DNA of 64,000 nt from Acetobacter sp. CAG:977 (lineage in GTDB: Bacteria > Pseudomonadota > Alphaproteobacteria > CAAGCB01 > CAG-977). The notes beneath the pieces are model-generated. The model was not told where the DNA came from and ran no database searches. It saw nothing but the letters and a program-made list of their open reading frames with translations. The DNA lies in the NCBI GenBank assembly GCA_000434295.1, contig HF994935.1, positions 109,869 to 173,868 on the forward strand, read 5' to 3'. A program made the position numbers and the translations under genes. This document shows, piece after piece, positions 15,264-19,595 of this stretch (the first letter of the stretch is position 1; every line of letters begins with the position of its first letter).

Positions 15264-15665
15264 TCAGTTATCTCTGTCGGGAACGGTTTCCACGAAAATC
15301 AAATCATGAACTCCCGACGTTTTTAAAATCAGGGTTTGCCCTTTTAATTCGTACCCCGACACGGTCGGCAGAACCTTTAAATATTCCTGTTCTGCCTGCA
15401 TCAAAGGCATGGGGCCCATCATCATTGTCGTTCCCGCGGGCGAAAATTCCATTCTTCCTTCGGGTTTTAATTGATAAGACCCGAAATACCTGTTCACGGC
15501 GGCGTTTCCGGCGAATCTGGGGTCTTTGGCATCAAAAGCGATGGTGATTTCCGCATTGTTCGGAGCATTGACCAATTTATAAGTTCTGCCTCTGAAATCG
15601 CCCGTATTGTTATAGACGGCGCATCCTGACAGCAGTAACGCCGCAACGGCGAATAATTTTTTCAT
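15264..15665 (-). CDS. META-domain (HslJ-like) lipoprotein
   Basis: Lipobox LLSGC. The body resembles the META/HslJ domain (AGNAAVNRYFGSYQL...MMMGPMPLMQAEQEYLKVL). Its start overlaps the stop of the upstream LRR gene by 4 nt. Confidence 0.7.
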   Translation of the reverse strand: MKKLFAVAALLLSGCAVYNNTGDFRGRTYKLVNAPNNAEITIAFDAKDPRFAGNAAVNRYFGSYQLKPEGRMEFSPAGTTMMMGPMPLMQAEQEYLKVLPTVSGYELKGQTLILKTSGVHDLIFVETVPDRDN

Positions 15666-16978
15666 TTAGAGCCCTTTCCTTTGTTTTTTAACAACAAATC
15701 GGTAACGGCCGAGCGCATGACTTCGTTTTTGATTTTCTGGAACGAAGGGCGTCCGTGCCGTCCGTCAAGCTGCCATTTGTCGGCTTCGGGGACGGCGTTC
15801 CATGCCGTTTGCATTTCTTTAGCATCTTTCCATTTGTTTTTCACGAAAATTTCGGGCAACAATTCCGCGGCGGCGGCATTTTCGATAAACGTTTTGCCGT
15901 CACCGGTCGGTTCCAGACATTCTTTTGCCGATAACGGAGCTTTGTGCACGGCCAACACTTTCGGCAACAGCCCCGTGTCAAACCCCTGAGCCAGAGTGTC
16001 CGCAAGCATCAGCGGCAAATCTGCCGCATATTCGACTTTTTTTCGATAAGCTTCACGAAAAGCAATGCGGTGCATCTGTTCCATACGGGCGTTGAAGATC
16101 GGTTTGCGGTTTCCGTCATCCCAGTTTTTTAGTTCGCAAACGGCTTTTTCCAACCGCGTCTGATGCGAAGAAAACATATCGGCAATGACCGAAGACACGC
16201 GACGTTCGGCATCCATTCCGCCGCTGGCAAAAGTCAGAACGGTTTCTTTGACGTTTGATTCCGTTAAGCCTTTGCACATTTCAACGGCGGTTTCTTCGTT
16301 CAATTCGATAAAGTGCGCCGAAAAAAACTCTAACTTTGACGCGGGCAGATTTTTGGCAACAGCCTGTAATGCCGATTGCGATATTTTCGGGTTATACGAA
16401 ATATCCAAGTGTTTCAAAGACGATTTTGCCAAAGCATTCCCCAATTCGTCTCCGCCGTAAGCCGCGCCGACGGATTGACAGGACAGCTTTTCAAGCGCGG
16501 CCGTTTCCAACAGCGGCGCCAAACGTTCGAAAAACGGTTCCGCCATGGTGTTGGAATTAATCGTCAAAGATTTAATCTTTCCGCTTCCGATTATTCCGAG
16601 GACGGCATCGGTACATTCTTTGTCGCCGTTAACGGCGTTTTGAGAAATGTCCAGACGTTCCGTTTTTGATTCTTTGAGGGCGTTCAATAATTTGATGACG
16701 GCTTTCGGTCCCGCCTTTGCGCCGTTAAGGCTTAATTCTTTCAGTTCGGGGATTTCGCGCAAATTGTCGGCAAGCCAGCTTACGGATTCTTCCGTTACGC
16801 AGGCTTTTCCCATATTCAGCGAAGAAATTTTATATTTGGCGGCGGCTTGTAAAAAAGATTTCGTATATTCTTCTCCCGTCATCGGAGATTGCGGCGTAAA
16901 AGGCTGATCTTGACGGTGCGAATACATACGGCGGATGTCTTCGTTTAAAGCCTTTAATTCTTCAAAAGACAAACTCAT
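15662..16978 (-). CDS. RNI-type leucine-rich-repeat protein, paralog 1 of 3, with a conserved C-terminal domain of unknown function
   Basis: 438 aa with no signal peptide. LRR units such as LKELSLNGAKAGPKAVIKLLNAL and LKHLDISYNPKISQSALQAVAKNL. C-terminus has KWKDAKEMQTAWNAV...KWQLDGRHGRPSFQKIKNEV, shared with the two upstream paralogs. Confidence 0.7.
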   Translation of the reverse strand: MSLSFEELKALNEDIRRMYSHRQDQPFTPQSPMTGEEYTKSFLQAAAKYKISSLNMGKACVTEESVSWLADNLREIPELKELSLNGAKAGPKAVIKLLNALKESKTERLDISQNAVNGDKECTDAVLGIIGSGKIKSLTINSNTMAEPFFERLAPLLETAALEKLSCQSVGAAYGGDELGNALAKSSLKHLDISYNPKISQSALQAVAKNLPASKLEFFSAHFIELNEETAVEMCKGLTESNVKETVLTFASGGMDAERRVSSVIADMFSSHQTRLEKAVCELKNWDDGNRKPIFNARMEQMHRIAFREAYRKKVEYAADLPLMLADTLAQGFDTGLLPKVLAVHKAPLSAKECLEPTGDGKTFIENAAAAELLPEIFVKNKWKDAKEMQTAWNAVPEADKWQLDGRHGRPSFQKIKNEVMRSAVTDLLLKNKGKGSK

Positions 16979-18288: not shown

Positions 18289-19595
18289 CTGCCTGCGTTC
18301 CTTTTATTCAGGTTGGTATAGACGGCTTTTCTCATGATTTCGTTTTTAATTTTCTGATACGACGGTCGCCCGTTTTTCCCGTCCATCTGCCATTTGTGCC
18401 GTTCGTCGACGTTTTGCCAAGTCTTTTGAAATTCTTTGGCGTCAACCCATAAAGAGGTTTTGAAAATCAATGCCAGTTGTTCCGCGCGGGCGGCTTTTTG
18501 AATAAAAGGGATTCCCGCGGCGTCGGAAGCAAGGCATTCGGCGGCGCTTAAAGGCTTTTTACGTCCTGCCAACGCTTGGGGCAACACCCCCGTTTCCAAT
18601 GCGTCGCACAACGTTATGCCGTCAGGTGCTTTTTCGACGTTTTTCTTTTCCGCCGTTTTCTGCGCGATGCTTTTTCTGTAAGCGACGTTTTTTAGCAAAG
18701 CTTCTCGGGCAGCCAGCATATCTTTTGATTTTTCGTGCGGCGTGTTAAACGTGGTTATGAAAACGTTTTCCAGACGGTTTTGCCCCGATTTTAACATTTT
18801 TTCGGCTTCTTTGAAAAAAGCGTCGCTGAAACGCGAAGAAGCGGAAAAATAAAAATATGATATTTCCGTGTTCGGAATCATCTGCATCAATCGGATGGCT
18901 TCGGGTTCTTTGAAATCATAGCATCCGCGCATATTCAGACGTCTGATTGTCGAATTCGGCAAAGAGTCGATGAAAATGTTTTGTGCTTTCGGGTCGTTAA
19001 AACTGCTGAACGCGAGAGAAACCAGCTTTGTGCGGTTCATGATTTCCACAAAGGCTCTGCAACCTTCGGGATAGGAAATGACGCCTTCGATATCCAGATC
19101 GCGGATATTCGTGTCAGGCAGGACTTTGGAGAGTTTTTCCAAAAATCCGAAACGTTTTTCGCCCATTGAAGTTTGGTGAAGGGACAAGATTTCCAACGGA
19201 GTATTTTTTGCGACGTTCAACAAAAGGGGCACGGCGGCATCGGGCAGTTCGACTCTGTTCAGGGAGAGCTCTTTGATTTTTGAAGTTTCCAAAGCTTTTA
19301 AAAGAGCGATGCCGCCCTTTTTCCCCGGTTTTGAATCGTTAAGGTTTAACCCTTCCAAATTCGGGGCAAGGTGCAAATTTCTTGCCAGCATCTGGACGTG
19401 ATTGGAACCGAAATAATCGCATTCGGCAAAGGACAGCTTTTTAATCCCCGCGTTTTCGGCGGTTTTTAACAGATTTTGCCACGACTCATCGTCCGGCATG
19501 GGAAACGGGCAGGAAAAGAACCTGTCTTTTTTTGCAGAGTCCATGCGGGAAAAAAGCTTTTCGATGTCTTCCGTTTTCGGTCGGTCAAAAGCCAT
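18285..19595 (-). CDS. RNI-type leucine-rich-repeat protein, paralog 3 of 3
   Basis: 436 aa. LRR units (LEGLNLNDSKPGKKGGIALLKAL / IKELSLNRVELPDAAVPLLLNV). Same C-terminal domain (HKWQMDGKNGRPSYQKIKNEI). First gene of the operon. Confidence 0.7.
   Translation of the reverse strand: MAFDRPKTEDIEKLFSRMDSAKKDRFFSCPFPMPDDESWQNLLKTAENAGIKKLSFAECDYFGSNHVQMLARNLHLAPNLEGLNLNDSKPGKKGGIALLKALETSKIKELSLNRVELPDAAVPLLLNVAKNTPLEILSLHQTSMGEKRFGFLEKLSKVLPDTNIRDLDIEGVISYPEGCRAFVEIMNRTKLVSLAFSSFNDPKAQNIFIDSLPNSTIRRLNMRGCYDFKEPEAIRLMQMIPNTEISYFYFSASSRFSDAFFKEAEKMLKSGQNRLENVFITTFNTPHEKSKDMLAAREALLKNVAYRKSIAQKTAEKKNVEKAPDGITLCDALETGVLPQALAGRKKPLSAAECLASDAAGIPFIQKAARAEQLALIFKTSLWVDAKEFQKTWQNVDERHKWQMDGKNGRPSYQKIKNEIMRKAVYTNLNKRNAGR

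Follow-up and report, generated by a model that had tools for sequence, protein, structure and literature searches.

Introduction

The joining of a variable binding region to a conserved C-terminal handle is an architecture that is already known. [quoted passage not shown] Two papers describe how one and the same BID domain can serve both as signal and as effector, and can bind lipid (PMC6509941; PMC11556746). The XVIPCD is a domain of ~120 aa, in which an Arg-bearing extreme C-terminus is needed for translocation (PMC8740702). The coupling of MoxR ATPases and von Willebrand factor A (vWA) proteins with effectors that are diversified by a diversity-generating retroelement (DGR), or that swap modules, is a further published theme (PMC7159879). 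Here, we compare with these systems a locus in a 64,000-nucleotide stretch of the genome of Acetobacter sp. CAG:977 (contig HF994935.1; this whole stretch is referred to as the window), in which three tandem genes, P1, P2 and P3, code for proteins that combine N-terminal leucine-rich repeats (LRRs) with a conserved C-terminal domain of ~110 residues, which we call the tail domain.

A preliminary description of the window, made by reading its sequence, had noted a Cys that is shared by all three tail domains, had likened the architecture to that of the LRR-NEL family of E3 ligase effectors, and had suggested that the domain might be enzymatic or secretion-related. The analysis reported here leads us to a different view of the Cys: the tail domain is very probably a non-catalytic folded module, in which the Cys plays a structural part, and which acts as the constant handle of a family of variable binders. 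While the general architecture is known, the domain family itself is new to Pfam, NCBIfam, PADLOC, the PDB and BFVD.

Results

Three tandem LRR proteins share a conserved C-terminal domain

The three genes lie in tandem on the minus strand as the first three of an operon, and the P3/P2 and P2/P1 gene pairs overlap by 4 bp each. The genes and the tail domains that they encode are located as follows.

18285-19595, minus strand: P3, 436 aa, the operon's first gene, with ribonuclease inhibitor (RI)-type LRRs and the conserved C-terminal domain (list of open reading frames (ORFs) and three-way alignment)
16975-18288, minus strand: P2, 437 aa, the second gene, with the clearest LRR signal of the three
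15662-16978, minus strand: P1, 438 aa, the third gene
18288-18632, minus strand: tail domain of P3, residues 322-436 (domain hidden Markov model, HMM)
16978-17325, minus strand: tail domain of P2, residues 322-437 (domain HMM)
15665-16003, minus strand: tail domain of P1, residues 326-438; the domain HMM matches positions 332-456 of the stop-to-stop ORF with E=6e-60

Sequence identity between P1, P2 and P3 is 28-30% over their whole length, 23-24% over the N-terminus and LRRs, and 45-53% over the last ~113 aa. The three proteins do, then, share a distinct C-terminal domain that is better conserved than their LRR parts, as had been proposed, and the residues that had been listed as common to it (P-L, Cys, F-I, AA.AE.L..IF, W.D.KE.Q..W, WQ.DG..GRP and QK.KNE..R) are all invariant in the three-way alignment. 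The span originally given for the domain, 15662-18650, takes in the whole of P1 and P2 together with the tail of P3, but the domains proper are confined to the three intervals listed above.

Comparisons were extended to a set of related loci, labelled L001, L002 and so on, which were examined as the 10 kb on either side of each match, ~200 kb in all. The tails are 52-69% identical to their orthologues in L002 and 86% identical in L001, as compared with 45-53% between paralogs. Because orthologous tails are closer to one another than paralogous tails, the triplication must be old and the conservation of the tail is best ascribed to selection; recent gene conversion was rejected as its cause for the same reason. 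When measured against the orthologues, the tail domain has a ratio of nonsynonymous to synonymous substitution rates (dN/dS) of 0.15-0.21 and the LRR part one of 0.20-0.36, so that the former is under the stronger purifying selection.

During this comparison, synonymous divergence between P1 (window 15665-16978) and its L001 orthologue (833-2146) was found to be 1.44 in the N-terminal/LRR part and 0.42-0.47 in the linker and tail, a drop that suggests a recombination mosaic within the gene. A further variant, P0004, joins L001-like and window-like segments.

The tail domain defines a previously unannotated family

An exhaustive HMMER scan of 1.84 billion cluster representatives identified 95 clusters with E<=1e-3, including 34 with E<=1e-10. 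Since the profile, built from the three tails, finds relatives down to an E-value of 3e-55, the similarity of the tails lies far beyond chance. Some 90 of the 95 clusters look genuine; P0080 and P0089, which are fn3/GLUG repeat proteins and are not matched by an HMM built from eight sequences, are probably false positives. Looking up the clusters returned only the name ‘hypothetical protein’, with sources in metagenomes and in metagenome-assembled genomes (MAGs) of Alphaproteobacteria/Pseudomonadota. The cluster that contains P2 of the window has 67 members, one of which was seen on 78 contigs. A search of all six frames of the window (with an eight-sequence profile) and of the related loci, for further copies of the domain or for its last 35 residues alone, found only members of the family.

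No model in Pfam, NCBIfam or PADLOC matches the tail of P1, P2 or P3. When 49 diverse members of the family were scanned singly against Pfam and NCBIfam, the only matches were traces, one to Ank (8e-4) and one to VbhT (E=0.1). PADLOC also returned no match for P1-P3 in full, for the 491-aa protein that is encoded next to the operon or for the proteins of a gene block at L008 (both described below), and a search of PDB sequences with a three-sequence profile of the tail found nothing. A consensus-like version of the domain had no tblastn match among the plasmids of PLSDB or the phages of INPHARED, and a scan of IMG/VR found none, on which evidence the domain appears not to be a plasmid, relaxase or phage domain. 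A word-indexed search of 5.8 billion proteins with three- and 49-sequence profiles yielded nothing beyond pieces of the proteins of the window itself and a single fragment of 113 aa; its negatives are not readable as absence, since it missed full-length members that HMMER found, such as P0003, which is near-identical to P2 of the window. Taken at the level of sequence, the tail is a real family that lies beyond the coverage of Pfam, NCBIfam and PADLOC. This agrees with the first impression that it could be assigned to no known family, an impression with which the searches for sequence and fold matches in the PDB are also in accord.

The shared Cys is confined to close relatives

The Cys on which the likeness to enzymes had been built, and the loop that turned out to be the strongest signature of the family, are encoded at the following positions.

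15917-15919, minus strand: codon of C354 in P1
17230-17232, minus strand: codon of C353 in P2
18534-18536, minus strand: codon of C354 in P3
15740-15772, minus strand: signature loop of P1, QLDGRHGRPSF
17050-17082, minus strand: equivalent loop of P2
18357-18389, minus strand: equivalent loop of P3

The Cys is common to all three paralogs and is kept, together with WQxDGxxGR, in the L001 and L002 orthologues. This would speak for a Cys-dependent enzyme (such as an E3 ligase, protease or transferase) analogous to LRR-NEL effectors. Across the wider family, in which 65 of 67 aligned tails could be scored at this column, the residue is L in 18, Y in 18, C in 11 and F in 6 (L/Y/F in 42/65), and the 11 tails with C all come from close relatives of P1-P3. 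When the family profile is aligned to designed ankyrin proteins, the column coincides with the Val of the ankyrin ‘GADVN’ turn; L, Y, F and C interchange because the column falls on this buried hydrophobic position. The Cys is, by this alignment, likely to be a buried residue of the structural core, and neither catalytic nor defining for the family.

The family of IpaH, SspH and SlrP resembles the window proteins in having N-terminal LRRs followed by a conserved C-terminal domain, and in occurring as multi-copy paralogs in host-associated bacteria. The NEL domain, however, is ~300 aa long with a catalytic Cys in a CxD motif, whereas the tail domain is ~110 aa long and its Cys is not conserved. 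The residues that follow the Cys in P1-P3 (ECLEP, DCFEY and ECLAS) contain no C-x-D, as had been noticed at the outset, and there is no conserved His partner, no match to other peptidases or ligases, and no match at E<=1 between the Pfam model of NEL and P1, P2 or P3. The judgement that the domain is not a NEL domain is upheld, and the idea that its Cys is catalytic is refuted by the conservation of the column across the family; the probability that we attach to a Cys-dependent enzyme is close to nil.

The motif WQxDGxxGRP had also been put forward as a conserved feature, and here the outcome is divided: its W is variable (W13/A13/K9 in the 67 tails), while the remainder of the motif is among the best conserved parts of the domain. 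The strongest signature of the family is Q-x-D-G-x-x-G-R-P-S-F...K-N-x-V-M. In P1 numbering, the top columns (residue counts out of 67) are Q403 (50), D405 (57), G406 (64), G409 (60), R410 (57) and P411 (59), together with S412 (43), F413 (55), K417 (56), N418 (41), M421 (46) and V425 (44). Other conserved residues are L349, D/E353, G361, F378, P380, W383, N385, K387, M389, Q390 and W393.

The domain is predicted to be all-helical, with an ankyrin-like first half

An AlphaFold 2 model of the last 180 aa of P2 is all-helical, with a predicted local distance difference test (pLDDT) score of 83-94 across the domain. Its helices occupy model positions 68-74, 77-86, 93-96, 107-113, 117-120, 129-137 and 141-147, and are followed by a terminal helix of 23 residues. 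A Foldseek search with this model found no match at E<1 in either the PDB or BFVD.

The first ~60 positions of the 49-sequence profile match designed and consensus ankyrin proteins, with whole-sequence E-values of 1.6e-6 to 1e-3, and do so in ankyrin register, with the pattern L-x-x-AA-x-x-G-x-L-x-x-V-L followed by D-x-x-G-x-T-L-L-x-x-AA-x-x-x-x-L-x-x-V-F. The best single ankyrin repeat reaches an independent E-value (i-E) of only 0.036, designer pentatricopeptide repeat (PPR) proteins score alike, and Pfam Ank is matched by just one of the 49 domain sequences and by none of P1-P3. These alignments suggest a first half that is ankyrin-like and consists of about two degenerate repeats. The second half, with its W-x-N-x-K-E-M-Q-x-x-W segment, Q-x-D-G-x-x-G-R-P-S-F loop and K-N-x-V-M-x-x-A-V helix, has no counterpart in ankyrins or in any other known domain. 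As modelled, the ~110 residues of the domain comprise the ankyrin-like helix pairs, two capping helices, an exposed Gly-rich loop, and a long amphipathic terminal helix that runs into a basic tail.

The clustering of several nearly invariant polar residues in one loop-helix segment, in a domain to which no known family could be assigned, would be compatible with a small enzyme whose activity depends not on the Cys but on residues such as D405, R410 and K417. We regard this as very unlikely. The domain consists of ~110 residues of short helices, half of them ankyrin-like, in which no pattern of a nucleophile, acid and base triad is seen, and no structural neighbour is an enzyme. In addition, the proteins that carry 2-4 copies of the module without the DGxxGRP loop (see below) are better explained by a structural repeat.

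The constant tail is joined to interchangeable and diversified binding modules

The LRR regions of the three window proteins are located as follows.

17461-18141, minus strand: RI/NLR-type LRR horseshoe of P2, residues ~50-276
16145-16831, minus strand: equivalent region of P1
18768-19448, minus strand: equivalent region of P3

In P2, Pfam LRR_6 is matched above its cut-off (E=1.9e-10); P1 and P3 fall below the Pfam thresholds and can be aligned to P2. The full-length AlphaFold 2 model of P2 (pLDDT 81) consists of an N-terminal helix, 8-9 strand-helix LRR units, a connecting helix (284-313) and the helical tail domain, and in Foldseek searches it matches the LRRs of ribonuclease inhibitor, NLRP and NOD2 proteins at E-values of 3e-9 to 1e-7. 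The N-terminal part had been correctly recognised as a genuine LRR. Its repeats, of 28-29 residues, are of the eukaryote-like RI/NLR type and not of the IpaH type; the LRRs of IpaH belong to the short type. The LRR is presumably a fast-diverging binding module.

Most members of the family have divergent RI-type LRRs as the N-terminal partner of the tail domain, and several have ankyrin repeats (P0016, P0030, P0039, P0072 and proteins of L014). In one member, encoded at L014, the partner is a segment that is targeted by a DGR, the elements of which are listed here with positions in L014.

10279-10884: bAvd (E=1.9e-5)
10936-11052: template repeat (TR)
11313-12350: reverse transcriptase (RT; RVT_1, E=8e-18)
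12593-12709: variable repeat (VR), within the target gene 12436-13749

The bAvd-like gene and the reverse transcriptase gene sit between two family members. TR and VR, 117 nt in length, differ at 10 positions, all of which are adenines in TR (10/23 A, 0/94 other bases). The target protein is 437 aa long and ends in the conserved tail domain, with VR lying at aa ~53-91, unusually near the N-terminus. From its sequence, this DGR looks complete and looks to be working. Neither an RT nor an Avd turned up in the window. Together, these data suggest a family in which one constant C-terminal module is joined to interchangeable or actively diversified binding modules.

The domain and its basic tail resemble bipartite export signals

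In nearly every full-length member across the ~90 clusters, the protein continues for no more than a few residues beyond the domain. The last 12 residues form a basic tail, located in the window proteins as follows.

15665-15700, minus strand: P1 (...LLLKNKGKGSK)
16978-17013, minus strand: P2 (...AAKKGKNR)
18288-18323, minus strand: P3 (...LNKRNAGR)

The mean net charge of these 12 residues is +3.25 in the family, with 91% of members at or above +2, as compared with +0.46 for 50 other ORFs of the window, 32% of which reach +2. The very last residue is R in 39 and K in 6 of 67 members. Some proteins carry 2-4 copies of the module; these form a subfamily in which it is the first two-thirds of the module that is repeated, without the DGxxGRP loop. 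Even so, the loop-less proteins end in sequences rich in Arg, Lys and Pro (...RRRPKH, ...RRRPKKGPKSS and ...KSHKPKVA). The family thereby possesses a positively charged extreme C-terminus, which is a trait of VirB/D4 T4SS substrates. As read from the sequence, the N-termini of P1, P2 and P3 contain no hydrophobic stretch that resembles a signal peptide, unlike the adjoining META-domain lipoprotein.

Several of these features are reminiscent of the BID domain and its basic tail, a combination that relaxases and toxins of alpha-proteobacteria share with the Beps. Both are all-helical C-terminal domains of ~100 aa with a short positive tail, both occur in Alphaproteobacteria, and both are found in paralogs with differing N-termini, in tandem arrays and, in some proteins, in multiple copies. 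They differ in that BID forms a hooked, elongated bundle of four helices, while the tail domain is modelled as ~8 short helices with an ankyrin-like half; in that the N-termini joined to BID are FIC or relaxase domains, while those found here are binders; and in that no virB/virD4 locus was seen next to any of the arrays. Foldseek found no match at E<1 to the BID fold in the PDB copy searched, in which the BID structures are assumed to be present. Neither Pfam nor NCBIfam provided a match in sequence, save for the trace match at E=0.1, which pairs the distant member P0016 with the C-terminal part of the VbhT model.

The XVIPCD, through which the X-Tfe toxins of Xanthomonadales bind VirD4, similarly offers a conserved C-terminal domain of ~120 residues with several motifs and an Arg at the extreme C-terminus, and defines a whole repertoire of effectors. 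Its secondary structure is alpha-alpha-beta-beta-beta, its tail is Gln-rich and its N-terminal partners are antibacterial enzymes (PMC8740702). The tail domain, in contrast, is predicted to be all-alpha, with a tail rich in K, R, G and N and with repeat scaffolds as N-terminal partners. Because the tests of fold and sequence fail, the tail domain appears to belong to neither family, even though the features just described follow the same logic as those of Bartonella Beps and XVIPCD effectors.

By analogy with these systems, it is possible, although somewhat short of probable, that the folded domain and the basic tail are the two parts of a C-terminal recognition signal, by which variable binders are docked to a single partner, most likely a machine for export. 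The signal would dock every paralog to this common partner, probably the substrate receptor of the export machine, such as a coupling protein of the VirB/VirD4 type. P1, P2 and P3 would then be binders that a gut commensal secretes or translocates as effectors. We favour export because of the strict C-terminal position of the domain, and because of a basic tail that ends in Arg and is kept even where the loop has been lost. Further reasons are that the binder modules are eukaryote-like and carry no Sec signals, that tandem arrays and multi-module proteins occur, and that the setting is alpha-proteobacterial. Of the roles that had been suggested for the domain in the preliminary description, the secretion-related one appears the most plausible.

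The same loop and basic helix might instead make direct contact with a target. The domain would in this case be a binding or localisation module with, for example, a phospholipid, a nucleic acid or a protein of the host or prey as its target, and the N-terminal repeats would add a second specificity. Binding sites typically have conserved polar residues of a surface type, here N385, K387, Q390, Q403, D405, R410, K417 and N418, and a basic amphipathic helix and tail. Ankyrin-like repeats serve as scaffolds for protein binding, and BID provides a precedent for a domain that is both signal and effector (PMC6509941; PMC11556746). Nonetheless, no similarity to a known lipid-, DNA- or protein-binding domain was found, and such a function would require neither the strict C-terminal position nor the terminal Arg. 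We therefore consider a binding module decidedly improbable.

Tandem arrays at two loci follow a vWA/MoxR-like gene block

Tandem copies are a recurring feature of the family. The window, L002 and L011 have three each, the same locus in the more distant L017 has two, and L006, L007 and L014 have three to four. At L008, which is part of a 669-kb contig, nine C-terminal domains occur within 15 kb. Two members at L008 (11834-15776) look disrupted. One consists of a 372-aa ORF that lacks a tail and of an overlapping frame that bears one; in the other, an LRR ORF of 314 aa has its tail in another frame (15210-15776). They are either pseudogenes or assembly frameshifts.

At L008 and L014, a block of three genes with the same orientation as the arrays lies immediately upstream of them, the gaps being 2-60 bp.

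L008 70-5711 and L014 3-5526: three-gene block

The first gene codes for a protein of ~820 aa whose centre is acidic and of low complexity and whose C-terminal domain is VWA_2; its complete L008 copy has an N-terminal HEIGH motif, and the L014 copy is cut at the N-terminus. The product of the second, of ~910 aa, has GPPGIGKS and DE(I/V)N motifs and no match in Pfam or the PDB; from these motifs, which were read by eye, it looks MoxR-like. The third gene codes for a protein of ~110 aa. Between these two distant genomes, the block proteins are only 26-36% identical. No such block was found in the window by tblastn.

This arrangement gives rise to the main competing explanation, in which the tail domain would serve to dock its carriers onto a pair formed by a MoxR-type AAA+ ATPase and a vWA protein inside the bacterium, and the LRR, ankyrin and DGR-targeted modules would act as sensors or baits. 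The Asp of the Gly-rich loop would perhaps be a ligand of the metal ion-dependent adhesion site (MIDAS), and would couple the modules to a remodelling or thresholding machine, as in the NTP-dependent diversifying conflict systems of Kaur, Burroughs, Iyer & Aravind 2020. It is favoured by the conserved same-strand block that directly precedes the arrays at L008 and L014, and by the working-looking DGR inside the L014 array, which recalls the published MoxR-vWA and DGR theme (PMC7159879). As in those systems, the hypervariable proteins of the L008 and L014 arrays share a single constant domain and have a vWA protein and a MoxR-like ATPase as neighbours, and L014 adds a DGR.

The differences are considerable. 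VMAP-C is an alpha+beta domain with ~7 strands, while the tail domain is modelled as all-alpha and corresponds to no other adaptor described so far, and PADLOC has no match. The vWA and ATPase proteins of L008 and L014 are far larger than the canonical pair and, except for VWA_2, are not recognised by Pfam, so that the MoxR label depends on motifs read by eye. No vWA or MoxR gene lies near the family members in the window, L002, L011, L017, L009 or L012, none of the vWA, MoxR-like or 110-aa proteins contains a tail domain that could act as a homotypic adaptor, and the explanation gives the basic tail no role. A handle for an intracellular MoxR-vWA pair seems to us unlikely.

Operon context and genomic surroundings

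Other features of the operon and its immediate surroundings are listed below.

15264-15665, minus strand: META-domain lipoprotein gene, the last gene of the operon, which overlaps the P1 stop by 4 bp (Pfam META, E=5.7e-20)
15213-15248, minus strand: hairpin resembling an intrinsic terminator that closes the operon, with a 14-bp stem followed by a T run
19625-19652, minus strand: promoter-like site with an extended -10, upstream of P3, from a consensus scan only and not evidence of function
19772-21247, plus strand: gene for the 491-aa protein, transcribed divergently from the LRR operon; it has 86 homologues and belongs to no Pfam family, and none of the search hits bears a name given by its source

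The start of P3 is preceded by a Shine-Dalgarno-like AAAAGGACGG. The N-terminus of the META lipoprotein reads as a signal peptide, with the sequence ...LLSGC, and the order of LRR genes followed by the META lipoprotein gene is also found in L002, L011 and L017.

The 491-aa protein belongs to a family with an N-terminal domain of ~225 aa that contains an invariant Cys59 (YCLGxYT) and His169 (HAxMFxG), a middle part that is variable and of low complexity, and a C-terminal tail that is basic and conserved. Judged by these motifs, it is a candidate papain-like or NlpC-like hydrolase. Members are syntenic with the LRR genes in L002, L011 and L017, and occur without them, as tandem paralogs, in L015 and L016. 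Both this family and that of the LRR proteins have an R-x-S-(hydrophobic) motif 18-30 residues (~22) before the basic C-terminus, laid out as in G-R-P-S-F. Across 111 ORFs of five loci, this pattern, which was defined post hoc, is present in 7, all from these two families, and in 0 of the 104 others.

15665-15766, 18288-18383 and 21140-21244 of the window: tails with R-x-S-hydrophobic, found also in L009, L012 and L015

The remainder of the 64 kb is ordinary chromosome, with genes for ATP synthase and EttA, rpoD, dnaG, greA, mlaD, efp, ruvAB, tolQ/tolB and ftsH, and one tRNA-Met, and past the edge of the window there are housekeeping genes only. An identical locus is present on human-gut metagenome contigs of up to 0.2-1 Mb, and the two relatives found in a species-level genome collection are MAGs labelled Alphaproteobacteria.

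Three further sets of genes were noted in the surroundings. In the window, 57824-62485 (minus strand) codes for a 1553-aa protein in which a DUF6782 putative metallopeptidase domain (residues 849-1034) is the only one recognised; this could be another large secreted or effector-like protein amid housekeeping genes. A 633-aa protein with an adenylate/guanylate cyclase domain is encoded at 30549-32450 (minus strand), and the genes after it (32841-36121, minus strand) code for two OmpA-domain proteins and for a protein of 330 aa that has no Pfam match. At L019, on a 380-kb contig, 6594-7583 codes for a 329-aa Fic and MerR_1 protein (Pfam listing) that lies ~3.5 kb upstream of the window's first complete gene and adjoins a ClpB-like ATPase.

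Discussion

Several observations weigh against the reading of the tail as an export signal. Neither the 64-kb window nor the ~200 kb of related loci showed any gene of a secretion system, T4SS or other, and the literature on LRR and T4SS content in gut Alphaproteobacteria, where it was searched, offered nothing specific. The predicted fold is made up of many short helices and is ankyrin-like. The N-terminal partners are limited to binder scaffolds, with no enzyme-bearing members found, though a general export tag might carry these as well. A different partner is suggested by two distant genomes, where genes for a vWA protein and a MoxR-like ATPase share an operon with the arrays. The source organisms are uncultured, and any contact with host cells would be hypothetical. 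Finally, homology between the tail of the 491-aa protein and that of the LRR proteins was considered and set aside, as hhalign gave a non-significant P=0.12; what remains is a resemblance in a short motif, and this is a weak additional lead towards a common export signal.

A broader and more speculative proposal, which we consider doubtful, is that the tail domain represents a new class of substrate recognition. It would define a hypervariable repertoire of LRR, ankyrin and DGR-mutated binders in prevalent, uncultured Alphaproteobacteria of the human gut, with the Asp/Arg loop and basic tail being read by a dedicated machine, whether a secretion receptor or the giant vWA and MoxR-like pair. 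If this were true, the domain would be a sequence tag for all the substrates of an undescribed gut system directed at the host or at competitors.

For annotation, the analysis corrects the tempting but wrong reading of these proteins as NEL-like Cys enzymes. If the tail domain is a handle for delivery or docking, the tag Q-x-D-G-x-x-G-R-P-S-F with its basic end would make it possible to catalogue a hidden family of LRR and ankyrin binders of eukaryote-like type, from those uncultured Alphaproteobacteria that human-gut metagenomes commonly contain. In this family, three independent routes, namely paralog arrays, module swapping and DGR hypermutation, would lead to binder diversity on a single constant scaffold, and diversity of this kind is a hallmark of an arms-race interface with a host, protist or competitors.

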